58,759 nucleotides of DNA. Origin: Opitutales bacterium (GTDB taxonomy: Bacteria; Verrucomicrobiota; Verrucomicrobiia; Opitutales; UBA953). Positions 5,820 to 50,128 of the stretch are shown piece by piece. The notes beneath the pieces are model-generated. The model ran no database searches and had not been told where the DNA came from. It saw only the letters and a list, made by a program, of their open reading frames with translations. How positions within the stretch are numbered: position 1 is the first letter of the stretch; each line of letters starts with the position of its first letter. The stretch covers positions 104,631-163,389 of the forward strand of contig JBBAUX010000001.1 of NCBI GenBank assembly GCA_040398005.1, in the 5' to 3' direction. The position numbers were made by a program, and so were the translations under genes.

Positions 5820-7073
5820 ATGAGTGCCATTAAACGTATTTCCTTAGCTCAACTGGATCCTGCGATTGATACGATTATCAAAGCAGAATTAAACCGTCAA
5901 CAAACCCACATCGAGTTAATCGCTTCGGAGAATTTTACTTTGCCTGCCATCATGGAAGCGCAAGGCAGTGTGCTCACAAACAAATACGCGGAAGGTTATC
6001 CTGGTAAGCGTTGGTATGGTGGTTGCGAAGAGGTCGATAAAATCGAACAACTTGCGATTGATCGTGCAAAAGCTTTATTTGGTGCAGACCACGCGAATGT
6101 TCAACCCCACTCGGGCAGCCAAGCGAATGCTGCGGTTTATTTAGCTTCGATTAAGCCTGGAGATAAAATTCTCACTATGAATTTATCGCATGGTGGTCAC
6201 TTAACTCACGGTAACGCGGCCAATTTCTCTGGAAAATTTTATACGGCCGTCCATTACGGTGTCGGTACTGATGGCCGAATTAATTATGAAGAAGTAGCGG
6301 AGATGGCGGCGCGGGAAAAACCGAAGATGATTACGGTCGGTGCGTCGGCCTATGCGCGCACGATTGATTTCGAGCGTTTCGGAAAAATCGCCCGCGAGAA
6401 TGGGGCACTCCTTTTAGCGGATATTGCGCACATTGCTGGGTTGGTGGCGGCGGGGGTTCATCCTTCACCCATTCCGCATGCGGATTTTGTAACCACCACG
6501 ACGCACAAAACTTTGCGCGGTCCACGTGGTGGATTAATTTTATGTAAGGCCGAATTTGCGAAGGCGATCGACTCAGGTGTTTTTCCTGGAACGCAGGGTG
6601 GACCTCTGGAGCATGTGATTGCGGCTAAGGCTGTTTGTTTTGCTCAGTGTGCTACGCCCGAGTTTAAAGAGTATGCGAAACAAGTCGTCGCTAATTCGAA
6701 AGCTTTAGCGGAAGCTTTGGTTGCACACGGATTCCACTTGATCAGCGGTGGAACGGATAATCATTTAAGTTTGTTGGATTTAAGAAAGAGCCACCCGAAT
6801 GTGACGGGTAAGGATGCGCAATTGGCGCTCGATGCAGCTCACATTACGGCTAACAAAAACACGGTTCCAGATGAGACACGCAGTCCCTTCCAGGCCAGTG
6901 GTATCCGTGTGGGTACACCGGCGGTCACCTCAAGGGGTATGAAAGAGGCGGAAATGAAGGAAATTGCTCGGGCCATCGCGATTGTGCTGTCCGACCCTCA
7001 AAATCCTCAGAAAATCGAGGAAGGGAAGGCCATTGCGACCACTTTATGCAGTCGTTTCCTCTTGCCTTACTAA
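5820..7073 (+). CDS. glyA: Serine hydroxymethyltransferase
   Basis: [37 protein letters not shown]. Confidence 0.98.
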
Positions 7074-7138
7074 GTTTAATAAAATTATTTCATCTATCGA
7101 GTTGTCCCCTCAACTCACCCCTTTTACTTACACCTAAT

Positions 7139-7858
7139 ATGAAATCCTCCTCCTCAACCAAACGCAGTGGTTTTACTCTCATCGAGTTGCTCACCGTTAT
7201 TGCGATTATCGGTATCCTTGCCGCCGTCCTTTTCCCCGGTGTTCAAGGTGTGATGAAGAAGGCCAAGCAGTCCACTGCTTCGACCAAGCTTCGGAACATC
7301 GTTCAAGCGATGATTTCTTTCTCTGATGGCAAGAAGTATATTAAGTATGTCGCGTGGAATAACACCACCAACAGCAGTTGCGCAAATAGCATCTCAGATT
7401 ATGCTGCAGTTCTCGCTTTTAATGCTAGTTTAAACGCTGGCGAAATTTGGTATGTTGATGCTGATAAGCTTAATGAAACTGCCTCATTTCCTAAACAAGT
7501 TTTAACGGGTGCCGTCGGTAATCAAAGCATCGATACGAACTTTAAGAATGGGTCTGACGCTTATGGTTGGCACTCTTGGACTGCTTATTCTCCTACCTCT
7601 AAAAATTTAGACGGAAACATTCCTCTTCTCTGGTCCCGCGGGCTTTCTGATGCTGGCGCTTGGGATGCAACTAATGGTGTTTGGGGTGCAGACGGAGGCC
7701 ATATCGGCTACGGTGACTCCCACGTCATTTGGACTGCTAACACCACTGATGACGGTAATGGTCAACCAATCTTCCTTGATAAAGCACTGGGTACTGCCAC
7801 TGCAAGTTGGAAGAAAGCTGTATCAGCAGGTACTGTTAACGAATTAAAATCCAAATAA
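7139..7858 (+). CDS. Type IV pilin-like protein (paralog 3, stand-alone)
   Basis: ATG 7139 MKSSSSTKRSG|FTLIELL; colinear with paralogs 1 and 2; own terminator. Confidence 0.9.
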   Translation: MKSSSSTKRSGFTLIELLTVIAIIGILAAVLFPGVQGVMKKAKQSTASTKLRNIVQAMISFSDGKKYIKYVAWNNTTNSSCANSISDYAAVLAFNASLNAGEIWYVDADKLNETASFPKQVLTGAVGNQSIDTNFKNGSDAYGWHSWTAYSPTSKNLDGNIPLLWSRGLSDAGAWDATNGVWGADGGHIGYGDSHVIWTANTTDDGNGQPIFLDKALGTATASWKKAVSAGTVNELKSK

Positions 7859-27792: not shown

Positions 27793-28749
27793 TTACTTAT
27801 TGGCCAGACTTTGCGTTACGGCAGCACTGAGCTGATCAAACAAGGTATAGCGACGAGCATAGAGCGCCCGCTTGTTTGTCTTAATCTCTTCACGACTACG
27901 ACGAATCTCACGCAGTGGTAATTCAAACCAACCTTCTTCAACGGCTTTACCATCGGCCTCTTGCCACATTTGATCGTAGTTGAAAGATATTTTATTCCAA
28001 GGCACAGAAATCATATGCTTCCCGGAACTCATTTGAATGGAATTGCCGGCTCCCAGGAGTCGACTGACGCCCAGAGCGCTCACCACTTCTTGCAGAGCAA
28101 AGATGGCCATGGCCTTGGCGCGAACCCCATGCATGGCCTTCCAGGACGCTTTAATCGTATCCTCGTTGGCTCCTGCACCTCCTTGAATCGCCCCCGCATA
28201 GGCAGTCCATTGCCCGTTTACCTCCTCAACGGAAAAAGCAATGGAACATAACTCATCGCCAATCTTATCGCAGTGAACGCTTAACGTCCATTGTCCTTCG
28301 CGGCGGAAGCGATAGCTATTAGAAATCTTAAATTGAATATTACCGAGATCTTCGCCCAGAGGGACATCGGCGACGGTCAGTTTTTCCTCCATCTTAATTA
28401 CTAACGACTGAAGTAGTAGACCCTTCTTTAAATGGGCAAATCGCAGTGAATCCCTAAGCACTTTAAGTTTTTTGTCATTTCCCCACTGAGTTGAAACATA
28501 GCCACGTAGTGTTCGAAAACAAAGAAATGGGTTGGCTCCTAGAATAGCCCGATTTTGGGACTCCTGTAAAAAGCTCACCCAATCAACAAGGACATCCTTT
28601 TGTGCAAAAGCGCTCAAGGATGCACCGAGACTTTTCACCAACCGTGACCGCCAATTCCTCCCCTTATGTAACTCTTGAGTGAGTTTCCAAACATACGCAC
28701 CAGCACCCAACCGGGTTTGGGGAAGAGTTGGGAATGAGGGGTGCAACAT
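27793..28749 (-). CDS. VirK/YbjX (DUF535) family protein
   Basis: FRREGQWTL, GAIQGG, KAMHGVRAK, FNYDQMWQE, IKTNKRALYARRY; start uncertain (28749 or 28764). Confidence 0.85.
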   Translation of the reverse strand: MLHPSFPTLPQTRLGAGAYVWKLTQELHKGRNWRSRLVKSLGASLSAFAQKDVLVDWVSFLQESQNRAILGANPFLCFRTLRGYVSTQWGNDKKLKVLRDSLRFAHLKKGLLLQSLVIKMEEKLTVADVPLGEDLGNIQFKISNSYRFRREGQWTLSVHCDKIGDELCSIAFSVEEVNGQWTAYAGAIQGGAGANEDTIKASWKAMHGVRAKAMAIFALQEVVSALGVSRLLGAGNSIQMSSGKHMISVPWNKISFNYDQMWQEADGKAVEEGWFELPLREIRRSREEIKTNKRALYARRYTLFDQLSAAVTQSLANK

Positions 28750-28814
28750 AGCTAACTTGGACAAGTTGTAGCCAAGTTAACCTAAGGGCGATTAAAGAAT
28801 TAAACTACTTAGCT

Positions 28815-29885
28815 TCAAAGACCAGGCCGGCTATTCTGATCAGGCTTAATACCCTTGGCCTTGAAGAACTCGCTTAAAACTTCGGCGCGGGCATCGGCTA
28901 ACTGATTTTTTCTTACATCTTCCGTAGTCAGCATTTTTTGTCGCTCCGTCATGATGCGACGAAGCTGCATGAGTGCCCCTTGTTGTAGTTGTCGTACGCG
29001 TTCGCGTGTGAGTTTAAACTTTTCGCCGATTTCTTCCAGCGTGAGTGGGCTTTCGCCATTTAAACCGAAGCGAAGAGTGATGACTTCTGCCTCACGTGCT
29101 TCGAGTCTAGTCAGCATTTCATTAATCTCAGCGACGTCAGATTTACTACGAAGATTTTCAAAAGGAGAACTCGCATTTTCGTCTTTTACTAAATCACCTA
29201 AAGTTGAATCACCTTCTTCGCCCACTTCTTGGTCGAGCGATGCCGCCCGATTGGCGACGGACTTCATATGCACTACTTTGGAAATAGGTATCTCCATCGA
29301 TTGAGCGATTTCATCATCCGAAGGTTCGCGTTCTAATTCTTTAGCGAGTTGCGCAATCATACGACGCATCTGCGCAATGCGATCAACCATGTGGACGGGC
29401 AGTCGAATGGTTTTACCGTTGGAGGCGAGAGCACGCTTTATAGCCTGCTTAATCCACCATGAAGCGTAGGTGCTGAGCTTGCCTCCTTTATCGGGGTCGA
29501 AACGTTCAACGGCTTTGATGAGTCCGAAATTTCCTTCACTAATTAAATCCATTAAGGGCAGGCCAAAATCATCGTAATCACGGGCGATTCTTACCACTAA
29601 GCGTAAGTTCGACTGGATCATTTTTTGGCGCGCTGCTTCGTCTCCTTTGAGAACTTTTCGAGCCAGCGCCGTTTCTTCTTCTAAAGTGAGTAGCGGGGTT
29701 TTTCCGATTTGATCCAAGTAAGATCTAATCGGTGAGCGTTCATCGGGCGAAAGCTTTTCCCAGGCTTGTCCCGGCTCCGTGGGGTCATCATTAACCACAG
29801 CCGGAGGTAGTGACTGCACGATTTTTTTGGGCAGGTCATCTTTGGTCTCGGGAGCTTTCTTTTTATTAGACTTGGGTTTGGGCAT
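28815..29885 (-). CDS. Sigma-70 factor, RpoD/RpoS-like, lacking region 1.1
   Basis: YLDQIGKTPLLT, SNLRLVV, DLISEGNFGLIKAVERFDP, STYASWWIKQAI, TLEEIG...TRERVRQ. Confidence 0.93.
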   Translation of the reverse strand: MPKPKSNKKKAPETKDDLPKKIVQSLPPAVVNDDPTEPGQAWEKLSPDERSPIRSYLDQIGKTPLLTLEEETALARKVLKGDEAARQKMIQSNLRLVVRIARDYDDFGLPLMDLISEGNFGLIKAVERFDPDKGGKLSTYASWWIKQAIKRALASNGKTIRLPVHMVDRIAQMRRMIAQLAKELEREPSDDEIAQSMEIPISKVVHMKSVANRAASLDQEVGEEGDSTLGDLVKDENASSPFENLRSKSDVAEINEMLTRLEAREAEVITLRFGLNGESPLTLEEIGEKFKLTRERVRQLQQGALMQLRRIMTERQKMLTTEDVRKNQLADARAEVLSEFFKAKGIKPDQNSRPGL

Positions 29886-38610: not shown

Positions 38611-39312
38611 ATGCGTAAACTTCTTGAATTTCTTAATCGACCCTCCACCCGCGGTAATTTCTTCCGCCGTTCGATTAACAATTTACCCTTTCAAATCCTA
38701 GTCTGTTTATTGGCAACGGGTGCCGTGGTCGTTGCGGCAATCAATGAATACGCCACGAATAAGTATTTGAATGTCGGTTACACGCCTGATCAACCGGTAG
38801 CTTTCAATCACTCCTTCCACGCCGGGCCTGATTCCGTTCTCGGTCTCGACTGTCGTTACTGCCACAATTTTGTTGATCGTTCGAGTCACTCCAACGTGCC
38901 TACCTCCAATACCTGTTGGAACTGCCACAGCCAAGTTAAGTCGGACAGTCCTGCCTTAGCGTTAATTCGTCGCAGCGTCGAAACGGGTGAAGCTGTTCGC
39001 TGGGTTAAAGTTCACAAGGCTCCCGATTACGTTTATTTCAATCACGCGGTGCACATTAATCGCGGCGTCAGTTGCGTGGAATGTCACGGTCGCGTTGATC
39101 AACAAGTCGTGGTCGGTCAGCAAAAATCTTTGAACATGAGTTTCTGTTTAGATTGTCACCGCAATCCCGAAAAATACCTCCGTCCGCTCGATAAAGTTAC
39201 CGATTTATCCTGGAAAGCTGAATCGCCTGAAGCGCAAGCCGCTCAGGGAACCAAGTTCGTTCACGACTGGAAGGTTAACCCACCCCAAAGCTGTTCTGGC
39301 TGCCACCGCTAA
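38611..39312 (+). CDS. actA: Alternative complex III pentaheme cytochrome c
   Basis: TM anchor; five CxxCH (CRYCH, CWNCH, CVECH, CLDCH, CSGCH); PDYVYFNH. Confidence 0.93.
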   Translation: MRKLLEFLNRPSTRGNFFRRSINNLPFQILVCLLATGAVVVAAINEYATNKYLNVGYTPDQPVAFNHSFHAGPDSVLGLDCRYCHNFVDRSSHSNVPTSNTCWNCHSQVKSDSPALALIRRSVETGEAVRWVKVHKAPDYVYFNHAVHINRGVSCVECHGRVDQQVVVGQQKSLNMSFCLDCHRNPEKYLRPLDKVTDLSWKAESPEAQAAQGTKFVHDWKVNPPQSCSGCHR

Positions 39313-39326
39313 AATAAAATTTCTCA

Positions 39327-42300
39327 ATGAGTAAGAAAGTTTTTCAACATCCAATTGCCCAAGAGGGCGAAACTACTGGACCCACCTACTGGCGTAGTCT
39401 CGATGAACGTAACAAGTCGCCCGAGTTCCGGACGCGCGCTGAACGCGAATTCTTGGACGACGCTGCGAACATCTCGAAAGTTGAACGTCGCGAATTTTTA
39501 ATGTTGATGGGTGCATCCTTTGGCTTAGCTGGCTTGGGCCTCGCTGGATGTCGCGAACCACGTAACCATACTTTACCTTACAGCAAACAACCAGAAAACA
39601 CGATTCCTGGTGTCGCCACATATTATGCGAGTTCATTCCCTGGTGAATTAGCCAATCAGCCTCTCATCGTTGAAACTCATCAACATCGTCCGACCAAAGT
39701 TGAGGGAAATCCCAGCCACCGTGCCAGCGGTTCAGCTTCATCAAAATTTGCTCAAGCAAGTGTGCTCGACCTCTATGATCCTGAACGTGCGCAAGTTTCT
39801 ACGGGTGCCAATGGTTCAGTTATTTCAGTTTCCGAAGTGCGTGATTTAATCCGCCAACTCGCCGCTTCTGAAAAAGCGAACGGTGGTGCCGGCTTAGCAT
39901 TCTTAGCTCGTCCGTCTTCATCGCCCACCCGTGCAGCTTTAGTGGCCGCGATTAAAGAAATTTTACCACAGTCTCGTTTTGTTGAGTATACTCCTGTTGC
40001 GCAAAATCGCGCCGAAGTCGCCCTCGGTGCACGCATTTTACCCGACTACGCGCAAGCGCGTCGCATCTTAAGCCTCGATGCTGATTTCTTGAACACGGGT
40101 GACGGTGCTGTTGAAAATACTCGTGCCTACTCCATCGGTCGTCGCGCGGATAATGCGGTCGAAGCCGATAAGATGACTCGTCTCTACGTGGTTGAGTCGA
40201 CTTTTACTATTACGGGTGCCGCTGCTGATCACCGTCTTCGTGCGTCGTCATCACATATTTCTGGTTTAGCGATTTTATTTGCCGCTGAAGTGCTCGCCCA
40301 AACCGGAAATAAATCGGACGCTGCTATTTTAACATCCAGAGTTTCGGGTATTTCTGTTCCCGAAGTTTGGATTAAGGAATGTGTAGTTGATTTGGTAGGT
40401 GCTAAGGAAAAAGCACTCATCGTTGCGGGTGATCATCTTTCGGTTGATGCGCATCGCGCTGTTTATTTAGCGAACCAAGCACTCAATGCTGCGATTCGCG
40501 TTGTTGAGTCCAATGCATCCGCCTCGAATTCGATTGCCGAATTAGTCGTACAACCTGCTAACACTTTAATTATTTTAGGCGGTAATCCTGCTTATGATGC
40601 TCCGGGTGATGTCGATTTTGCGAAAGCAGTGAAGTCGGCTAAAAATGTTGTTCGTCTCGGTTATCATGGTCCAGCCTTTGACGAAACTTCGGCCTTAGTG
40701 AAATCATTCGGTGGCACCGTCATTGCTGCCTCACACTATTTAGAAAGTTGGTCCGATGGTCGCACGCTCGATGGTACTTATGTGCCCGTGCAGCCCATGA
40801 TTGAGCCACTCTTTCCGACGCTCTCGGAGCTCGATGTCCTAGCTCCGTTTGCCGGAAAAAATCAAGAGCCCTACGCTTTGGTTCGCGAAACCTTTAATCG
40901 TCTCGCCAAAAATAATTCCGACTCCGCCTTTGCTGCGTGGTTGGCCGAAGGTGTTCTCGCGGAAACTTCAAGTGCCACGAAGAAAATTAAATTAGATGTC
41001 GATAGCGTCGGAAAATTTACCGCTCCACCATTATCGTTCAGCTCACTCGAAGCACGTATTTTACCGAGCGTCCATACGGGTGACGGATTATACGCGAACA
41101 ACGGTTGGTTAGCAGAAGCACCCGATCCCATGTCGAAGACTTCATGGGAAAACGTCATTCTCATCAGTCCTAAACTTGCGGCTAAACTTGATATCGAACC
41201 CAGTATTGGCGTTATCCAAAAAATCGGTGCGCTCAATCGGAACATTAATCAGATAATCGACGGTAAACTCATCGCACACTACGCTAAATTAACCCTCAGC
41301 GGTACCAGCATCAAAGGACCTCTCTTTATCATGCCTGGTATGGCTGATTTCACTGTGGGTCTGCAATTAGGTTTTGGCCGTACGGTTGCTGGCCGCGTCG
41401 CCACTCGGGTGGCTGAAAGATTACAAGGTAAAGTGGTGGGTAACGGTTTCAACGTTTACCCATTTGTTACTTCGCAATCCGCCGCTGTTCGCACGGGCGT
41501 AACTTTAGAACTCACCGGCGAAAGTCTTCCGGTTTGTAATACGCAAGATCACTGGTCGATGGAAGGTCGCGACGTGGTGCGCGAAGGAAACGCTGAAGAT
41601 TTACATCATAACGAGAACTTTGCGAAACTCGGAATCGATGGACACGCTCCAGCGGTTTACGGAAAAGACGAAAAACTTTCGGCGGCCGAAAAAGCTGTGC
41701 TCACGCCACGTGGAAATTCTGCGTATGAGCATCCTGATCACTCCGTGGCTCCCAACGTCGCCGTTTGGCAAGGTCACGAGAGTGAATTCCCGGTGCAACA
41801 GCAGTGGGGAATGTCGATCGATTTAAATACCTGTACGGGTTGCAATGCTTGTGTGACTGCCTGTCAGGCGGAAAATAATATTCCAGTCGTGGGACGCGAC
41901 CAAGTGTTGAAGGGTCGTAACATGCATTGGATTCGTCTCGATCGTTACTTCTTTGACGGTCGCGCTCAAGCAGGCACCGCGATTCCTGAAGATCCCCAAG
42001 TGACTTTCATGGGTGTCGCTTGTCAGCACTGTGAAACCGCTCCTTGCGAAACAGTTTGTCCGGCTAACGCCACGGTGCACGACGACCAAGGCCTCAACAC
42101 GATGGCTTACAATCGTTGTATCGGTACTCGTTACTGCGCTAATAACTGTCCGTACAAAGTTCGTCGCTTTAATTTCCTCGATTATAATAAACGCGAAGCG
42201 GGTCACTATTACGAAGGACCTCTCGGACCTGCTAAATTACCGAAAGACCCCGCTGACCTTCCGCAGATGCAAAAGAATCCTGACGTTTCAGTACGTATGC

Positions 42301-42704
42301 GCGGCGTGATGGAAAAATGCACTTATTGCGTACAACGTATTCAAGAAGCGAAAATCCAAGCGAAAGTTCGGGCCAAAGATTCTGCCAATCACCGCGTTGC
42401 TGATGGTACGATTCAAGTCGCTTGCCAACAAGCCTGCCCAGCGGAGGCGATTGAGTTTGGTGATATCACTGATCCGAACTCACGTGTGGCTAAAGCGAAG
42501 GCTTCTACCCGTACCTATGGAGCTCTCACTTATTTAAATACTCGTCCACGTACCACCTACCAAGCGAAGTTACGTAACATCAATGCACGCATGCCAGGTG
42601 CAAATCGTGTTCCGCTCTCGCGTAAGGAAATGGCTGGAAGAGAAGGGCAGAGTAGTCCGGAGCATGGTGCACCGGCTTATAAATCTGAAACACACTCCAA
42701 GTAA
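39327..42704 (+). CDS. actB: Alternative complex III molybdopterin-oxidoreductase-like / Fe-S subunit
   Basis: YWRSLDE, Tat RREFL then LAGC, RPTKVEGNP; CTGCNACVTAC, CQHCETAPCETVCP, CIGTRYCANNCP, CTYC. Confidence 0.95.
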   Translation: MSKKVFQHPIAQEGETTGPTYWRSLDERNKSPEFRTRAEREFLDDAANISKVERREFLMLMGASFGLAGLGLAGCREPRNHTLPYSKQPENTIPGVATYYASSFPGELANQPLIVETHQHRPTKVEGNPSHRASGSASSKFAQASVLDLYDPERAQVSTGANGSVISVSEVRDLIRQLAASEKANGGAGLAFLARPSSSPTRAALVAAIKEILPQSRFVEYTPVAQNRAEVALGARILPDYAQARRILSLDADFLNTGDGAVENTRAYSIGRRADNAVEADKMTRLYVVESTFTITGAAADHRLRASSSHISGLAILFAAEVLAQTGNKSDAAILTSRVSGISVPEVWIKECVVDLVGAKEKALIVAGDHLSVDAHRAVYLANQALNAAIRVVESNASASNSIAELVVQPANTLIILGGNPAYDAPGDVDFAKAVKSAKNVVRLGYHGPAFDETSALVKSFGGTVIAASHYLESWSDGRTLDGTYVPVQPMIEPLFPTLSELDVLAPFAGKNQEPYALVRETFNRLAKNNSDSAFAAWLAEGVLAETSSATKKIKLDVDSVGKFTAPPLSFSSLEARILPSVHTGDGLYANNGWLAEAPDPMSKTSWENVILISPKLAAKLDIEPSIGVIQKIGALNRNINQIIDGKLIAHYAKLTLSGTSIKGPLFIMPGMADFTVGLQLGFGRTVAGRVATRVAERLQGKVVGNGFNVYPFVTSQSAAVRTGVTLELTGESLPVCNTQDHWSMEGRDVVREGNAEDLHHNENFAKLGIDGHAPAVYGKDEKLSAAEKAVLTPRGNSAYEHPDHSVAPNVAVWQGHESEFPVQQQWGMSIDLNTCTGCNACVTACQAENNIPVVGRDQVLKGRNMHWIRLDRYFFDGRAQAGTAIPEDPQVTFMGVACQHCETAPCETVCPANATVHDDQGLNTMAYNRCIGTRYCANNCPYKVRRFNFLDYNKREAGHYYEGPLGPAKLPKDPADLPQMQKNPDVSVRMRGVMEKCTYCVQRIQEAKIQAKVRAKDSANHRVADGTIQVACQQACPAEAIEFGDITDPNSRVAKAKASTRTYGALTYLNTRPRTTYQAKLRNINARMPGANRVPLSRKEMAGREGQSSPEHGAPAYKSETHSK

Positions 42705-42725: not shown

Positions 42726-44135
42726 ATGGCTCACGCCCCTGATCATTCTTCTGAACGTCCTGCAATACTCGATAAGGTAAATCCTGCCGAGTTGCCCCGT
42801 GCTAAACTCATTCTCAATGACCGCGGCTTTCATTGGATCACCGATAAAGTTTGTGGCATTGTCGAAGAGCCCACGCCTCTCTGGTGGAAAGTTCTTTTTA
42901 CGGTAGCACTTTTCGTCGCATCTTTCACGGGTGTTGGATTATTTTACCTCGTTTCAACGGGAACAGGTGTTTGGGGTTTACGTGCCCCGATTGGTTGGGG
43001 TTGGGCGATTGTTAACTTCGTTTTCTGGGTCGGTATCGGTCACGCGGGAACTTTGATTTCTGCGATTCTCTGTTTGCTTCGCCAAAAATGGCGTACCTCG
43101 ATTAATCGTGCAGCTGAGGCGATGACGATTTTCGCCGTGATGTGTGCCGGTATTTTCCCGCTCTTCCACGTCGGTCGTGTTTGGTTTGCTTGGTGGCTCT
43201 TCCCCATACCTAATCAAAATGCAATTTGGCCACAGTTCCGTTCTCCTTTAGAGTGGGACGTTTTTGCAGTTTCGACTTACTTCACGGTTTCCTCTTTATT
43301 CTGGTACATGGGCATGGTGCCTGACTTTGGTACGATTCGTGATCGCGCAACTACATGGTGGAGAAAAGCTTTCTACGGCGTCTTGGCGATGGGCTGGCGC
43401 GGCGGCAATCGTCAGTGGTCCAACATGGAAATGGCGTATCTCTTGCTCGCTGGTTTATCCACGCCGCTCGTTCTTTCCGTGCACACCATCGTTTCGTTCG
43501 ACTTCGCAGTCTCGAACGTTCCCGGCTGGCACACGACTATCTTCCCACCTTACTTCGTGGCGGGTGCCATCTTCTCGGGCTTCGCGATGGTGTTAACGTT
43601 GATGCTGCCACTGCGTGCGATTTATCGCCTGCATGATGTAATCAATCAGTACCACATCGATAACATGTGTAAGATTATTTTAGCGACTGGTACGATGGTT
43701 GGTTACGCTTATGCCACGGAGTTCTTTATTGCTGCTTATTCTGGTAACGTTTACGAAAAGTTTGCCTTCGTGAATCGTGCCTTCGGTCAATACGCGTGGG
43801 CTTACTGGATCATGGTTTCTTGTAACGTGATTACGCCTCAACTTTTCTGGTTTAAGAAGATTCGCGAAAATCACTCTCTCGTTTGGATTATTTGCCTATT
43901 CGTGAACGTCGGTATGTGGTTCGAACGTTTCGTTATTACCGTGACCTCGCTGGCGAACGACTATCTGCCATCGAGCTGGGGATATTACAGCCCGACCATC
44001 GTGGATATCTTCACCTTCTTCGGCACCTTTGGTTTCTTCTCGGTGCTCTTCCTGCTCTTCGTGAGATTCTTCCCGCTTCTGCCGATGGCCGAGCTGAAGA
44101 TGGTCTCACCTCACTCCGATATTCATCAACATTAA
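42726..44135 (+). CDS. actC: Alternative complex III NrfD/PsrC-type quinol-binding subunit
   Basis: [45 protein letters not shown]. Confidence 0.95.
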
Positions 44136-44151
44136 TTTGACGTCACGAACC

Positions 44152-44694
44152 ATGAATGAACGCAATGAAAGTATCCACGGTGTCGCTTGCACCTTCCGCA
44201 AGCCGGCTGACGTCTATCACGCTGCGGAAAAAGTACGTGATGCCGGTTGGAAATATTGGGACGTACATTCGGCCTATCCGATTCACGGCTTGGACAAAGC
44301 GATGGGCCTGCCACGATCGAAAATACCTCGTCTGACTTTATTAGGTGGGGTTACTGGTTTCATCACCGGTTGTTTACTTACCTGGTATATGAATTCCTAC
44401 GACTACCCACTGATTGTCGGTGGTAAGCCATTATGGAGCCCCATCTTCCCATTCCCCATCATGTACGAGTGCACGATTCTCTTCGCGGCCTTCGGTACAT
44501 TCTTCGGTCAATTCATTTTAAATCGTCTCCCTCAACATCATCACCCTTTATTCGATCTTCCGCAGTTTGCGCGCACGTCGGATGACTCGTTCATGATTGT
44601 TTTAGAAGCTCGTGATTCCAATTTCCATTTAGATGAATCTCGTAACTTCTTACTCTCCTTAGGGGGTCAAGAAATCACCGTTATTCGCGACTAA
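44152..44694 (+). CDS. actD: Alternative complex III subunit D (DUF3341)
   Basis: DVHSAYPIHGLDKAMG, YPLIVGGKP, YECTILFAA. Confidence 0.93.
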   Translation: MNERNESIHGVACTFRKPADVYHAAEKVRDAGWKYWDVHSAYPIHGLDKAMGLPRSKIPRLTLLGGVTGFITGCLLTWYMNSYDYPLIVGGKPLWSPIFPFPIMYECTILFAAFGTFFGQFILNRLPQHHHPLFDLPQFARTSDDSFMIVLEARDSNFHLDESRNFLLSLGGQEITVIRD

Positions 44695-44700
44695 TCCACC

Positions 44701-45417
44701 ATGAGCCGCTACCTTACATTTCTTGCTATCGTTGTTGTTGCTGTGATTGGCTTCCTGGGTTTCCAAGGAAAGACCTCTAAGCAAACTCCGATTTATGTTT
44801 TCGATGATATGGACTATCAGTCGAAATATAAAGCTCAGGGCGAAAACACTTTCTTCGCCGATGGACGTGATGCGCGTCCGCCTGTGGCTGGATCCGTTGC
44901 TCGTGGTACCGGTCTCGAGCCGACCAAAATTTTTTCCGCGGAATACCGTCGTGCTGAATCACTCAATGCGTCGTTCGTTACTGGAAAAGATGAGAAGGGT
45001 AATTTCCTCTTAGATTTCCCAGCAAAGAGTCTTACCTTTTTATCGTCGGGCGAATTACAACCCTACACGATTGACAGTAAAGTTCTGGAATTAGGTCGGG
45101 CCAAATACCAAATTTATTGTGCCGTGTGCCACGGACAAGCCGCCGATGGTAATGGCATTATGAAAGTGCGTTCAGCCATCGAAGGGGACATCGCGATCAA
45201 CACGATTGCTAATTTACAAACGGCTACCTATCGCGCTTATCCCCAGGGCCAAATTTACGACGTCATCAACAACGGTAAAAACACGATGATGCCTTATGGC
45301 GATAAACTTTCACCTGAAGAACGCTGGGCCGTCGTCGCTTACTTACGCGCCTTGCAACTTTCTCAGTTCAGCCCACCAGAAATCACTCCTGCCTCCATCA
45401 AGGCCACCGCCAAATAA
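44701..45417 (+). CDS. actE: Alternative complex III monoheme cytochrome c
   Basis: DMDYQSKYKAQ, FFADGR, CAVCHG, MMPYG, ERWAVVAY. Confidence 0.92.
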   Translation: MSRYLTFLAIVVVAVIGFLGFQGKTSKQTPIYVFDDMDYQSKYKAQGENTFFADGRDARPPVAGSVARGTGLEPTKIFSAEYRRAESLNASFVTGKDEKGNFLLDFPAKSLTFLSSGELQPYTIDSKVLELGRAKYQIYCAVCHGQAADGNGIMKVRSAIEGDIAINTIANLQTATYRAYPQGQIYDVINNGKNTMMPYGDKLSPEERWAVVAYLRALQLSQFSPPEITPASIKATAK

Positions 45418-45423
45418 TTCGCC

Positions 45424-46692
45424 ATGAGCGCTTCTCCTTCCCGTTTATCTTCACATTGGACAACCTTCGTTGCCCTCGGCTTTGTCGCCTTGGTTGCCGT
45501 GTGGTCATTTGCCTTCCTGGGTTTGGGCGAACACCATCATCGTCCCGCACTCTCGGTTTTGGTCGGTTCCTTGTTTTGGATCTCTACTTTAATCGGTATG
45601 CTCATGTTGATCATGATTACGCGCGTGTTCGACGCGGGTTGGGCTCCGATTATTCGCCGCTCTTGGGAGTTTATGATCAGCGCTTTACCGGTAGTGCTTC
45701 TATTAGGGGTCGCTCCTTTAGCATTCATTCCTGAGTTTCGTCACATTCTTTGGGACTGGACGGACGCTTCACATATTTTGCCCAGCGGACACGAAGTCGG
45801 GCACGATCCTATCCTTCGGGCAAAAAGTTGGTTCCTTAATGAAAACTTCTTCCTCATCCGTATCGTTGCTTACACCCTCTTTTTCGGAGTGATCACTTGG
45901 GCTCTTCGTCACTGGTCTTTTAAACAGGACAAAGAACGCACCGCACAACATACGCATACCTTGCACGCTGTTTCTGCCGTGGGCATTCCTGCGAGTGCCG
46001 TTATGCTGACCTTGCTCGCGTTCGACTGTTTAATGGCCCTTTCTTATCACTGGTTCTCGACGATGTATGGTGTGTGGTTTTTCTCCCTCTCGATTCGCTT
46101 GGCCTTAGCTGCTACCGTGATTTTCACCTATCGATTATCCAACGGCGGTTGGCTCGATGGACTTCTTAATCAAGCCCACCGGCACGTACTCGGTTGTCTC
46201 ATGCTCGCCTTCACCGTTTTCTGGGCGTACATCAGTTTTTCTCAGTACTTCATCATTTATAACGCCAATATTCCTGAAGAAACTTTCTGGTATAACCTGC
46301 GTGAATTTAACCCCGTCACGGGTTTGAAAAGCGATTGGTGGGGTGTATCGATGTATCTTATTTTCGGATTCTTTTTCCTGCCCTTTCTTTTACTTTTATT
46401 CTATCGCGCAAAAATTGTTGCCCGTCGATTACTCACCATCGCCTGGATTATTTTTGCGGGTGGCATTGTAGATCTCTGGTTCAACGCCGTACCCCGTCAA
46501 ATCGTCGATAAGACTGCGCCTGAAGGTTTTACGGTATCACCCTTCATCAGTGGCTATCTCGCCCTAGACCTGCTCGCGATTGCTGGTTTCGGCTGCTTAG
46601 TCATCGGATTATTTTTACGTGCCTCCACCCAGGCAGAAACTATCCCCGTCCACGACCCTCGTATTCTCGAGTCTATCAATTACCATGAGTGA
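45424..46692 (+). CDS. actF: Alternative complex III membrane subunit F
   Basis: WFSTMYG, FTVFWAYISFSQYFIIYNANIPEET; polytopic. Confidence 0.92.
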   Translation: MSASPSRLSSHWTTFVALGFVALVAVWSFAFLGLGEHHHRPALSVLVGSLFWISTLIGMLMLIMITRVFDAGWAPIIRRSWEFMISALPVVLLLGVAPLAFIPEFRHILWDWTDASHILPSGHEVGHDPILRAKSWFLNENFFLIRIVAYTLFFGVITWALRHWSFKQDKERTAQHTHTLHAVSAVGIPASAVMLTLLAFDCLMALSYHWFSTMYGVWFFSLSIRLALAATVIFTYRLSNGGWLDGLLNQAHRHVLGCLMLAFTVFWAYISFSQYFIIYNANIPEETFWYNLREFNPVTGLKSDWWGVSMYLIFGFFFLPFLLLLFYRAKIVARRLLTIAWIIFAGGIVDLWFNAVPRQIVDKTAPEGFTVSPFISGYLALDLLAIAGFGCLVIGLFLRASTQAETIPVHDPRILESINYHE

Positions 46693-47443
46693 TAATTCTT
46701 CTAATGGAGATCGCCCTTTAATTCCTGGCCAAGTTGCTTCTTGGTTAGGTATTTTAGCCTTCGTTTTCGTCGCCATCTTCGTCATCGCCTACGCGTATGT
46801 TGCCTTCAGTCCTAAAACCAATTCTGACACTGAGCGCCGTATTGCCGAAAAAGCACTGCGCGCTGATACGGAATCAAAAGCGAAAGGCTTAATTTCTGCC
46901 ACCGGTTTTAATAGTGACGGAACTTATCGTGTGCCGGTCGAAGTAGCGATGTCGCTCATGGCGGCTGATCCAGACTTAGTAAATAAAATGCGCAGTTACT
47001 CTGCACCCGGTCCATCGGCACCTTCGCCCGTAACCCTAAAATCTGAAGCACCTAAAGTGGCTGATGAAGAAGTGCTCAAGCGCGGCTTAGCTGTGTATTC
47101 TCGAACCTGTATTGCTTGTCACCAACCCACGGGTAAAGGACTCCCCCCCGTTTTTCCTCCTCTAGCTGAATCGCCCATTGTGAATGGTGACGCCACCCTA
47201 TCTGTTAAGTTCATTCTTCATGGATTAATGGGACCTGTTACCGTCGCAGGAACAACTTACAATAGCATGATGCCTGCTGTTGCCGGTGTGAGTGACCAAG
47301 ATATTTCTGACGTTCTCACTTATGTACGCGCCAGTTTTGGTAACAATTCAGGTCCCGTGAATGTTGAACAAGTTAAAGCCGTTCGTGATGCCAACGCCTC
47401 ACGCAACACACCTTGGACCACTGCCGAATTAGGCCTTAAATAA
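46685..47443 (+). CDS. Membrane-anchored monoheme cytochrome c
   Basis: ATG 46685 overlaps the actF end; one TM; CIACHQ...FPPL...MMPA. Confidence 0.88.
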   Translation: MSDNSSNGDRPLIPGQVASWLGILAFVFVAIFVIAYAYVAFSPKTNSDTERRIAEKALRADTESKAKGLISATGFNSDGTYRVPVEVAMSLMAADPDLVNKMRSYSAPGPSAPSPVTLKSEAPKVADEEVLKRGLAVYSRTCIACHQPTGKGLPPVFPPLAESPIVNGDATLSVKFILHGLMGPVTVAGTTYNSMMPAVAGVSDQDISDVLTYVRASFGNNSGPVNVEQVKAVRDANASRNTPWTTAELGLK

Positions 47444-47457
47444 TTTTATAATCTTCG

Positions 47458-48831
47458 ATGAGCCAGGACTATCACCGCCAAGCACATTCTTCCCCAAGCG
47501 ATACAGGAAGCAGCCTGCCTGTTCGTTTATTTTTTGCCTCCGCTTTGGGTTGGTTAATTATTTCATCCGTTCTCGGACTCATCGTAAGTTTAAAATTACA
47601 AACTCCTACTTTCATGGCCGGTTGTGAGTGGTTCACTTATGGTCGCTTAGAAGTTCTTCAGCGTAATGCTTTCACTTACGGTTGGATTGCGAATGCCATT
47701 TTCGGTGTGAACTTATGGATCATGTCCGCACTAGCTCGCTTCGAATTTAAAGACAGTTGGTTGGCGGTCTGTGGTTGGTTGGGCTGGAATTTGGCTCTGA
47801 CTTTAGGACTCGGGGCAATTTTTCTCGGACACCTCAATGGCTACGCACTTTTAGAAATGCCCAAGGAGGTAGCTCCGGCCTTATTCATTAGTTTTCTCTT
47901 GGCTGCTCTCTGGCCTGCGGTTGCCTTTGTGCGTCGTCCTACCGGACACGTCTTCGTGTCACAGTGGTACATTATCGGTGCGTCCTTTGTCTTCCCCGTA
48001 GCCTTTGGTATCACCCAGTTGCTGGTTCTTTGGTATCCGACATCCGGAGTGCTTCAGGCGCTCATCCATAGTTGGTTCATCCAAAATATCCAATTACTCT
48101 GGATCGGGGCTTCGGCGATTGCTGCGACTTATTATTTCATCTCCAAGGAGTCGGGTCGCACGATCTCGGCTTACTATTTGGCCACTGTCGGATTCTGGAC
48201 CTACTTCCTTTTTGCGGGTTGGACGGCTCCTGCTTCATTACTCGGCGGTCCCATTCCTGTTTGGATTCAATCCGTCGGCGTGACTACTGCACTCATGATG
48301 TTAGTTCCGGTAATTATCCTGGGGATTAATTTCTTTGGGACACTTTCTTACAGTCGCGGATTTGCTTACGCTTGGAATAACACGACCCTCCGCTTCGTCT
48401 TAGTCGGTATGGTCAGCTTCGTGGTTTCTTCCGCATTAAATATTCTTTTCTCTACCCGCTCGCTGAATGCGGTTGTTCGTTTCACCGATTTCACCGTCGG
48501 ACAGCAGCAGCTCGTCAATTACGGTTTCGTATCGATGGTCTTCTTTGGCGCCGCTTATTATATTCTGCCACGCGTCACGGGTTCATTCTGGCCGTCGGCA
48601 AAACTAGTTCACCTCCACTTCTGGTCCTGTGTTATCGGAGGTCTCGGATTGGCTCTCCATCTTTTAATCTGTGGTTACCCCACGGTTAATAGCGGAGTCA
48701 TGAGCTATTATTACATCCCCGTTATCTTCTTCGTACTTTTAGAATTGGTGGGACACCTCGCCTTCGCGATTAATTCACTCGTCATGCTCTTCGCTTCTGC
48801 GCGAAATACAAACGACAACACTCACGCTTAA
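47458..48831 (+). CDS. cbb3-type oxidase subunit I (CcoN)-like protein lacking all metal-ligand histidines
   Basis: CcoN scaffold (SLKL..P, TYGRL, LEMP, GGPIPVW, FTDFTVG, YYILPR, LHFW) but the His motifs read VLQRN, FIQN, APAS and GQQQ. Confidence 0.85.
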   Translation: MSQDYHRQAHSSPSDTGSSLPVRLFFASALGWLIISSVLGLIVSLKLQTPTFMAGCEWFTYGRLEVLQRNAFTYGWIANAIFGVNLWIMSALARFEFKDSWLAVCGWLGWNLALTLGLGAIFLGHLNGYALLEMPKEVAPALFISFLLAALWPAVAFVRRPTGHVFVSQWYIIGASFVFPVAFGITQLLVLWYPTSGVLQALIHSWFIQNIQLLWIGASAIAATYYFISKESGRTISAYYLATVGFWTYFLFAGWTAPASLLGGPIPVWIQSVGVTTALMMLVPVIILGINFFGTLSYSRGFAYAWNNTTLRFVLVGMVSFVVSSALNILFSTRSLNAVVRFTDFTVGQQQLVNYGFVSMVFFGAAYYILPRVTGSFWPSAKLVHLHFWSCVIGGLGLALHLLICGYPTVNSGVMSYYYIPVIFFVLLELVGHLAFAINSLVMLFASARNTNDNTHA

Positions 48832-48843
48832 ATTCCCCTGAAC

Positions 48844-49395
48844 ATGAAGGACTTTAATCTCATTCTCTCCGGTATTTTCTTCACCTTAGCAGCTTCCTTC
48901 GGTGGTTTGCTGATTAGCAGTGAAGTCCAATTGGGATCTTTAGGCCGTGCACCCGCTGAAGAGGGTGGTCCGCTTTTTCCTGCAATTGAAACAGGTTTAG
49001 CGATTCAAGGTCGCCAAGTTTATCTCGAATTAGGCTGCGTCACCTGCCACACGCAACAGGTGCGTCCGGCCGGACAAGGAAACGATATTGCGAAGGGCTA
49101 TGCTCCTCGCCCGACTGTCGCCCGCGACTACGTTCTCCAGACTGAATTACTCTTAGGTAACCATCGTAACGGGCCCGACCTCGCGAACTACGGTGCTCGT
49201 GCTAAGTCCGATGACGAAATTCATGGCCACCTTCGCTCACCTGCCGCAGGTAGCACGATGCCTGCCTACAATTTCCTATACACAGTCGACAAAAATGGCG
49301 TCACTCAACCCACCGAGCGCGCGCAAGCCTTGGTCGCGTATTTAAAATCTCTCCATATCGACTACAATTCGCCTGAAGCGAAATTGAAACAGTAA
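48844..49395 (+). CDS. cbb3-type subunit II (CcoO)-like monoheme cytochrome c
   Basis: GRQVYLELGCVTCHTQQVRP, RNGPDLAN, STMPAYNFL. Confidence 0.9.
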   Translation: MKDFNLILSGIFFTLAASFGGLLISSEVQLGSLGRAPAEEGGPLFPAIETGLAIQGRQVYLELGCVTCHTQQVRPAGQGNDIAKGYAPRPTVARDYVLQTELLLGNHRNGPDLANYGARAKSDDEIHGHLRSPAAGSTMPAYNFLYTVDKNGVTQPTERAQALVAYLKSLHIDYNSPEAKLKQ

Positions 49396-49399
49396 TCCC

Positions 49400-50077
49400 A
49401 TGTCACAACATTCTCAAAATAACGATAAGCCCAACCGCTCCTTTGGTGAGCAGGGTAATCTTTCCGATAGTCGCCTCGTCGAGATTCACTCGCACCTCGC
49501 CCGCGATAAAGAGGAACCTGCTGAGGGTTTTTCCATGCTGCCTATCGTAATCGTATTTATCTTTTGTGGATTTGGTTTCTGGGCCGGTGTTTATCTGACC
49601 CGTAATTCGGGTGAATTTTCGGCGAGCACATTCGATCTCGATGCACCTAAATTAGTCGCCAACATGGGTCCTGTGGTTTTTGAGCCTGATCTCGTTAAGG
49701 GTGAAAAACTTTACATTCAAAATTGTGCCGCTTGTCACCAAGCCACCGGCTTAGGCGTCGCTGGTGCCTTTCCACCCATCGCTGGTTCTCCTTGGCCTGT
49801 GGGCAAGGAAGAGCGCGTGATCAAAATCGTCCTCGCTGGCTTAGCGGGTGAAATCGAAGTGAAGGGTCAAAAGTACGTCGGCAATATGTCCAACATCGGC
49901 GCCGGCCTCAAAGACGCTCAAGTTGCTAATATCATCTCTTATGTTCGTTCGGCTTGGGGTAACCAAGGTGGCCCTGTCATGGACACTAAGGTGGCTGAAG
50001 TGCGTAAAGCTATCGGCGCCCGTGGTCAGTACAGCGGTAAAGAAATTCTCGATCAGCACCCGTTAGAATCTAAATAA
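49400..50077 (+). CDS. Membrane-anchored monoheme cytochrome c
   Basis: One TM; CAACHQATG, FPPIAGS, YVRSAWGN. Confidence 0.9.
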   Translation: MSQHSQNNDKPNRSFGEQGNLSDSRLVEIHSHLARDKEEPAEGFSMLPIVIVFIFCGFGFWAGVYLTRNSGEFSASTFDLDAPKLVANMGPVVFEPDLVKGEKLYIQNCAACHQATGLGVAGAFPPIAGSPWPVGKEERVIKIVLAGLAGEIEVKGQKYVGNMSNIGAGLKDAQVANIISYVRSAWGNQGGPVMDTKVAEVRKAIGARGQYSGKEILDQHPLESK

Positions 50078-50098: not shown

Positions 50099-50128
50099 AA
50101 AGAAGCCCGAGAAATCTCGGGCTTCTTT
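50099..50128. terminator. Bidirectional terminator closing the act/cco-like operon
   Basis: aaagaagcccgag-aaat-ctcgggcttcttt. Confidence 0.88.

Follow-up and report, generated by a model that had tools for sequence, protein, structure and literature searches.

A ligand-less CcoN at the ACIII locus of Verrucomicrobiota is a conserved pseudoenzyme

The six metal ligands are regarded as near-universal in heme-copper oxidases. A 2024 survey, in its available text, names gNOR as the first member of the family in which even a single active-site His is replaced (PMC11214002). Adjacency of ACIII and a C-type oxidase has been noted for methanotrophs and Opitutaceae (accessible part of PMC8498564, citing Refojo 2010), and methanotroph papers, in the portions available, describe a cbb3 oxidase adjoining ACIII and tie it to high O2 affinity (PMC6688271, PMC8498564, bioRxiv 10.1101/2024.01.15.574570). 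ACIII of F. johnsoniae and R. marinus passes electrons to an A-type oxidase via its own ActA or ActE hemes (excerpts of PMC8552683). A full-text literature search, with most subscription papers outside its reach, returned no description of a ligand-less CcoN.

Fold and ligand sites of the window protein

The window is the whole 58,759-nt stretch of DNA that was analyzed, from an Opitutales bacterium (GCA_040398005.1, contig JBBAUX010000001.1, positions 104,631-163,389, forward strand; genome G000). Its genes run actA-B-C-D-E-F, actG-position/cytochrome c fusion, pseudo-ccoN, ccoO and monoheme cytochrome c, with these features:

38611..39312, + strand: actA, pentaheme cytochrome c
39327..42704, + strand: actB, TAT-type oxidoreductase/Fe-S fusion
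42726..44135, + strand: actC (NrfD family)
44137..44694, + strand: actD (PF11821)
44701..45417, + strand: actE, monoheme cytochrome c, named by position
45424..46692, + strand: actF, named by position; relatives weakly similar to ActC
46682..47443, + strand: small membrane protein at the actG position carrying a fused monoheme cytochrome c domain; ActG label from position only
47458..48831, + strand: ligand-less CcoN (pseudo-subunit I, C-family heme-copper oxidase), 457 aa, from ORF, PF00115, alignment and model
47659..47661, + strand: Q68 at the position of heme b ligand H60 (GRLRPLH60 reads GRLEVLQ68; 3mk7_A alignment, as for the next three)
48082..48084, + strand: Q209 at the position of CuB ligand H207 (WWYGH207N reads SWFIQ209N)
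48214..48237, + strand: A253 at the position of cross-link Y251 (codon 48214), and A259 and S260 at those of CuB ligands H257 and H258 (codons 48232 and 48235)
48502..48510, + strand: Q349 for heme b3 ligand H345 (codon 48502) and Q351 for heme b ligand H347 (codon 48508); GH345VH347 reads GQ349QQ351
48844..49395, + strand: CcoO, with CxxCH and axial Met139 kept and N106 at the S102 position (PF02433, 8smr_F alignment)
49400..50077, + strand: membrane-anchored monoheme cytochrome c (CcoP-like), with CxxCH and Met163 kept
50099..50128, + strand: 13-bp terminator-like hairpin 3' of the last gene (hairpin scan overall 17 versus 16.4 in shuffles)

We found that the pseudo-CcoN gene is a single uninterrupted frame of 457 aa (47458-48831, +), which matches PF00115 with 119.9 bits (cut-off 34.8); both PF00115 and Foldseek assign it the 12-helix COX1 scaffold of the heme-copper oxidase subunit I superfamily. 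Its AlphaFold2 model (61-sequence alignment) has a pLDDT of 85.6 and a pTM of 0.89, and the best Foldseek match of this model is P. stutzeri CcoN (3mk7_A, TMq 0.88), with NorB structures ranking below CcoN. Five solved-structure sequences were matched, all cbb3 subunit I chains, and the alignment to 3mk7_A covers residues 18-398 (E 2.2e-27). With TIGR00780 the protein scores 108.5 bits against a cut-off of 583, and an intact ACIII-linked copy is also below the cut-off at 258 bits. Hence, the uninterrupted 457-aa frame and CcoN scaffold of the original prediction are borne out by the ORF and the model. The subclade of the window protein is ~25 residues short before the last helix (window ~48690-48720; 457 versus ~480 aa).

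P. stutzeri numbering is taken from the 3mk7_A alignment and CcoO numbering from the 8smr_F alignment; the P. stutzeri residues discussed here serve as His ligands, in the K-channel or at the calcium site, and S102 of CcoO is a calcium ligand. At the ligand sites, the two low-spin heme b His of the C-family (H60, H347) are replaced by Q68 and Q351, the heme b3 His (H345) by Q349, the three CuB His (H207, H257, H258) by Q209, A259 and S260, and the helix VII cross-linked Tyr (Y251) by A253. The alignment thus places the loss of all six His and the Tyr at exactly the codons that had been predicted, and the predicted count of four His-to-Gln changes (Q68, Q209, Q349, Q351) is right; His to Gln is a single-base change. 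The adjoining ccoO with a heme c motif, also characteristic of the C-family, is present (PF02433, CxxCH, Met139). The NO reductases and NOD are characterized by heme ligands plus three FeB His and a Glu, and pseudo-CcoN has no His at any of the six sites. Since none of the known heme- and copper-binding residues remains, pseudo-CcoN is predicted to be unable to reduce O2; the ligands for O2 and NO reduction are both absent, so the earlier view that neither reaction is feasible probably holds.

The same operon order was found in the closest loci listed, wherever their contigs reach, and these loci are mostly from freshwater Opitutales MAGs. RNA-library contigs of a ~92%-identical relative (runs X1 and X2) cover actF to the last cytochrome, with one spanning 45714-49728; these runs are contigs that carry no expression level or strand. 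In a control stretch, coverage was very uneven, and run X10 gave scattered short pieces only. The RNA contigs fit transcription, in the relative rather than in the window strain. A promoter scan gave nothing above shuffles.

The N-terminal 129 aa of the actG-position protein had no Pfam match or significant PDB match. In most close relatives this gene is also fused to a monoheme cytochrome c; the domain is absent in L063-L066, and a similar extra cytochrome is found in the dead-copy family f23 (G124, G369, G389). Elsewhere in the window, a DUF535 gene (27793-28764, -) is skipped by related-strain contigs of runs X2 and X6 (joint 27795-28817) and is a variable gene, and three similar prepilin-type N-methylation proteins are encoded at 146-862, 911-1717 and 7046-7858, two in tandem and one 5 kb off. 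In the same genome, G000:C8:6952-7602 (L035) holds a proteorhodopsin-type gene, followed by carotenoid synthesis genes.

Homologues, selection and the two states of the locus

Hereafter, intact copies have all six His and the cross-link Tyr, and dead copies are ligand-less ccoN. The 120 homologues listed (query included) each have at most one of the six His, and in 16 a His is present at the H347 site alone. Since His is absent from the other five sites throughout these 120, the ligand loss is not due to chance or sequencing error. We found the same pattern in a profile search of 1.84 billion cluster representatives: among the best 150, six His occur in 4, five in 1 fragment and at most four in 145 (125 of which have none or one), in a scoring where divergent rows may be shifted by one position at the H257/H258 columns. 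The named taxa among these representatives are Opitutales for one dead copy and Burkholderiales for one intact copy, and the ESM Atlas matches were COX1 clusters only. As predicted, relatives are mislabelled as oxidases, with homologues carrying the database label 'cbb3-type subunit I'.

Gln had been proposed to preserve the shape of the ligand sites. This idea was rejected: two of these sites are occupied by Ala, Ser or Leu in close homologues, the replacement sites vary freely across the best 150 cluster representatives, and they vary among the dead loci as well. Hence, with replacement residues varying so widely, Gln is not required.

For selection, we found a pseudo-CcoN dN/dS of 0.057-0.076 in 7/7 pairs (Nei-Gojobori, 7 close loci), similar to the values for the neighboring ccoO (0.050-0.068) and actF (0.044-0.069). 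Of 79 related loci, 74 had a single ORF that covered at least 400 aa, contig ends cut 4, 1 was a distant match and none was split. Simple decay of a redundant oxidase gene would agree with the longer branches of dead than of intact copies and with the residues missing before the last helix in the window subclade; it is at odds with a dN/dS of about 0.06, with the unsplit frames and with the absence of the full ligand set in 145 of the best 150 50%-identity cluster representatives. We consider decay extremely improbable, and it is already largely refuted by dN/dS and frame integrity. Hence, as originally proposed, the gene is selected rather than decaying: with its catalytic residues lost and its fold and frame kept under purifying selection, pseudo-CcoN is outside the catalytic C-family and is a real, conserved pseudoenzyme.

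We then compared 150 positions that are at least 95% conserved in intact copies with the same positions in dead lineages. Lost were all ligands, the Tyr and the equivalents of R57, W203, E122, T215, S240, Y317 and H337; kept were mostly Gly, Pro, Trp and aromatic scaffold residues. Dead lineages share a single His, H387, which is present in intact copies too, and they share no newly gained polar or charged residue. These data bear on the idea that the emptied protein conducts ions (as the original prediction had suggested) or protons, or that it senses membrane or redox state. The 12-helix fold is retained and equivalents of Y223 and N293 persist in 0.85 and 0.90 of dead lineages, respectively, which would suit such a role; however, of the polar K-channel (T215, Y223, S240, Y317) pseudo-CcoN has G217, Y225 (kept), A242 and F321. 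With A253 for Y251, small or apolar residues thus replace T215, S240, Y317 and Y251, these four are lost across dead lineages, and no shared polar or charged residue has taken their place. A conduit or sensor is therefore quite improbable, and the suggestion of an ion conduit did not stand up.

Next to the dead copies is a state that the original prediction missed: a fully intact oxidase at the same locus in about half of the loci examined. From 401 genomes drawn from the phylum, with an intact homologue matched in 124, we scored ACIII-type matches and further relatives, leaving out canonical fused ccoNO, other stand-alone copies and G038 (cut by a contig end). The resulting 108 Verrucomicrobiota act-ccoN-ccoO-cytochrome c loci comprise 52 intact and 56 dead, with 7/56 dead loci from the window's own genus. 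The cross-linked Tyr is kept in 0/56 dead loci and H257 likewise in none, and 50/56 keep at most one His. The window protein is 36-40% identical to the intact L143-L148 proteins and is their direct orthologue. A spare paralogue of a working ccoN was considered and rejected, as the dead copy replaces the intact gene at the same locus. One genome, G407, carries two versions: its ACIII-linked ccoN is dead, and a second, separate ccoN-ccoO-cytochrome c of this type is intact (L204, L207).

The loss extends to ccoS. With a profile seeded on eight intact loci, ccoS was found just upstream of ccoN in 51/52 intact loci versus 1/56 dead loci, the single intact miss lying at a contig end and the single dead match being G036. 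By Pfam genome search, ccoS was present in 11/16 intact versus 0/15 dead genomes, and in G000 (94% complete) neither Pfam nor the custom profile gave a match. CcoS is essential for active cbb3 (accessible part of PMC7558416), and in ccoS mutants the cbb3 complex is fully assembled but inactive (accessible part of PMC5742617). Hence, loss of the catalytic site went along with loss of its maturation factor and of the proton path, while the scaffold and the c-heme motifs were retained.

The pattern of loss also weighs on the idea that pseudo-CcoN assists heme or copper assembly in another oxidase, or holds a new cofactor with new ligands and new chemistry. Such a role could draw on H204, which is at least 90% conserved in the close clade, and on G092 and G342, where both heme b His are kept; however, H204 is unconserved outside the clade, the replacement residues differ by lineage, ccoS is lost, and known variant heme-copper oxidase families, in the accessible text of PMC11214002, keep a metal site. 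We judge this role improbable. The G092 and G342 copies (L202, L203), with both low-spin heme b His kept and the binuclear-centre ligands gone, are a possible intermediate stage and, judging by these residues, may still bind heme b.

The ligands were lost more than once. In a 47-row CcoN tree built without the ligand columns, dead copies from G193, G241 and G351 are nested inside the intact family f18 (100/99), and a single origin, with all 23 dead rows in one clade, is rejected (p-AU 8e-6). Hence, more than one origin of ligand loss is firm. The ActB/C/D/F tree (102 of 108 loci) requires at least 12 state changes, or 16 losses if regain is barred, and the CcoO+cytochrome tree a minimum of 6 state changes. 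Two in-place pairings suggested by the Act tree, G407b with G223 and G300 with G068 and G312, are rejected on the CcoN tree (p 0.006 and p 0.009), and placing the G000 group with its intact sisters is borderline (p 0.058). The rejected pairings count against a high loss number and may reflect long-branch attraction or gene exchange. The dead locus of G407 holds a weak ccoS-like remnant (E 0.0014) that resembles the ccoS of the intact G223, which argues for in-place loss at that locus.

Partner oxidases and a proposed role for the scaffold

Genomes with an A-type subunit I number 50/50 among the dead-copy genomes tested and 41/52 among the intact-copy genomes; the naive Fisher p of 5.5e-4 ignores kinship, and phylogenetically independent pairs lack the power for significance. 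Within the fetched stretch, an A-type subunit I occurs at 12 dead versus 3 intact loci. In L209 (G395), L211 (G410) and L214 (G383), actE-actF-ccoN(dead)-ccoO-cytochrome c-coxA-coxC-coxB lie together, with actC on another contig. In nine genomes (G053, G065, G115, G169, G315, G386, G226, G034 and G032), the ACIII-linked C-type oxidase is intact and neither an A-type nor a bd match was obtained; some of them have a canonical ccoN-like match.

In the G000 assembly itself, searches for another COX1, for bd and for bc1 cytochrome b gave no match; ctaA and a ctaB-like gene lie at C10:28110-29875. That pseudo-CcoN is the sole oxidase of G000 was rejected, since the caa3 operon falls into a gap between contigs. 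In G041, G042 and G045 (L167, L168, L169), the cox genes begin ~1.3 kb past the point matching the end of G000 contig C10 (71710), and all 5 nearest genomes tested have cox genes. Hence, the caa3 operon is missing from the G000 assembly because contig C10 ends ~1.3 kb before it. The assemblies of G006 (87% complete) and G010 (64%) also gave no A-type match, the gap having been located for G000 only.

Four genomes of the genus g61 carry pmo genes, and their ACIII-linked ccoN is the dead copy only, in the operon act-ccoN(dead)-ccoO-cytochrome c-coxA-coxC-coxB; in G175, ~7 kb lie between actF and ccoN, and the stretch ended before actAB. Besides the dead ccoN, these g61 genomes encode two A-type heme-copper oxidases, one or two that are B-type-like, and a NorB, and TIGR00780 reaches a best E of only 4.5e-7 there (258 bits for an intact ACIII-linked copy). 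These four genomes run contrary to the published claims of a cbb3 oxidase, and the ACIII-adjacent methanotroph cbb3 of those papers is putatively the dead protein.

Loss of a whole ligand set with continued selection implies a second, non-catalytic job for the scaffold. On balance we favor, with modest confidence, a cofactor-free membrane scaffold on which CcoO and the CcoP-like cytochrome c would form a relay between ACIII and the A-type oxidase. In the ancestor, the ACIII-ccoNO-cytochrome c unit would have been a working C-type oxidase; once an A-type oxidase was present, the catalytic centre would have become dispensable and the scaffold not. Pseudo-CcoN, its heme b, heme b3 and CuB ligands gone and purifying selection kept, would then fold metal-free and bind CcoO and the CcoP-like cytochrome c. 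This complex would contact ACIII, and its c-hemes would pass electrons from ACIII to the A-type (caa3) oxidase. The assembled but inactive cbb3 of ccoS mutants, as far as the accessible part of PMC5742617 describes it, offers a precedent by analogy.

The c-hemes of the dead loci speak on both sides. CcoO keeps CxxCH in 56/56 dead loci and in 78/78 close-relative loci, and Thr at the S102 position is kept in 5/56. Against a relay, only 41/56 dead loci retain the axial Met of CcoO, which is swapped in about two thirds of close relatives: the 78 loci (L056-L133) comprise 25 with Met at the axial position, 26 with His-P-x-Y, 19 with a shortened His-bearing loop, 6 with Lys or Gln and 2 others. Hence, a tuned redox step at the CcoO heme is not a necessity. 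Also against a relay, three intact loci have coxA nearby as well, and ACIII-to-A-type transfer through ActA or ActE hemes elsewhere makes a relay not obligatory.

The main rival to the relay scaffold is structural support of ACIII, with pseudo-CcoN and CcoO needed for assembly or stability of ACIII or a supercomplex and the CcoO heme a vestige or a dead-end electron sink. It would account for the variable CcoO axial ligand and for the fixed position of pseudo-ccoN, which is always at the end of the act genes and stays with actEF where actABCD moved (G383, G395, G410). However, the downstream cytochrome of dead loci keeps CxxCH in 56/56 and its Met in 55/56, and in some dead lineages the actG position has gained another heme c domain, which speaks for continued electron transfer. 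Hence, we hold purely structural support to be unlikely. Taking the relay scaffold further, it is possible, and we propose it tentatively, that Verrucomicrobiota repeatedly (up to ~16 losses if vertical) made a terminal oxidase into a cofactor-free obligate adaptor that wires ACIII, via CcoO and the CcoP-like cytochrome, into an A-type supercomplex. In that case, verrucomicrobial methanotrophs would be without any cbb3 oxidase.

A ccoN annotation is commonly read as high-affinity O2 respiration, which would be wrong for 56/108 of the ACIII-linked loci examined. With intact/dead pairs inside one family and ccoS as a marker, cultured strains lend themselves to a direct test of the question.

Relation to known systems

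Pseudo-CcoN shares with cbb3 CcoN (P. stutzeri 3mk7/5djq, P. aeruginosa 8smr and R. capsulatus 6xkw) a common fold (TMq 0.85-0.88), PF00115, the ccoN-ccoO-cytochrome c order and the scaffold Gly, Pro and Trp. Unlike cbb3 CcoN, it has the equivalents of the six His, the Tyr, R57, W203, E122, H337, T215, S240 and Y317 replaced, and ccoS was not found. The intact ACIII-linked C-type oxidase of Verrucomicrobiota (e.g. L143-L148, L172-L201) has the same locus and gene order, and differs in its six His, its Tyr and its upstream ccoS.

The ACIII-aa3/caa3 supercomplexes of F. johnsoniae and R. marinus link ACIII and an A-type oxidase by c-type hemes, as proposed here; in the accessible text of PMC8552683, the link is ActE or an extra heme domain of ActA, and no adaptor with the heme-copper oxidase fold is described. 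The variant families (cNOR, qNOR, eNOR, gNOR, nNOR, NOD) have, like pseudo-CcoN, the heme-copper oxidase scaffold without the active-site Tyr; according to the available part of PMC11214002, they keep a metal site, whereas pseudo-CcoN replaces all six His. Hence, what sets this protein apart is a large family without the whole ligand set, lost more than once and still selected, and pseudo-CcoN would, if this reading is right, be a natural metal-free member of the heme-copper oxidase superfamily.
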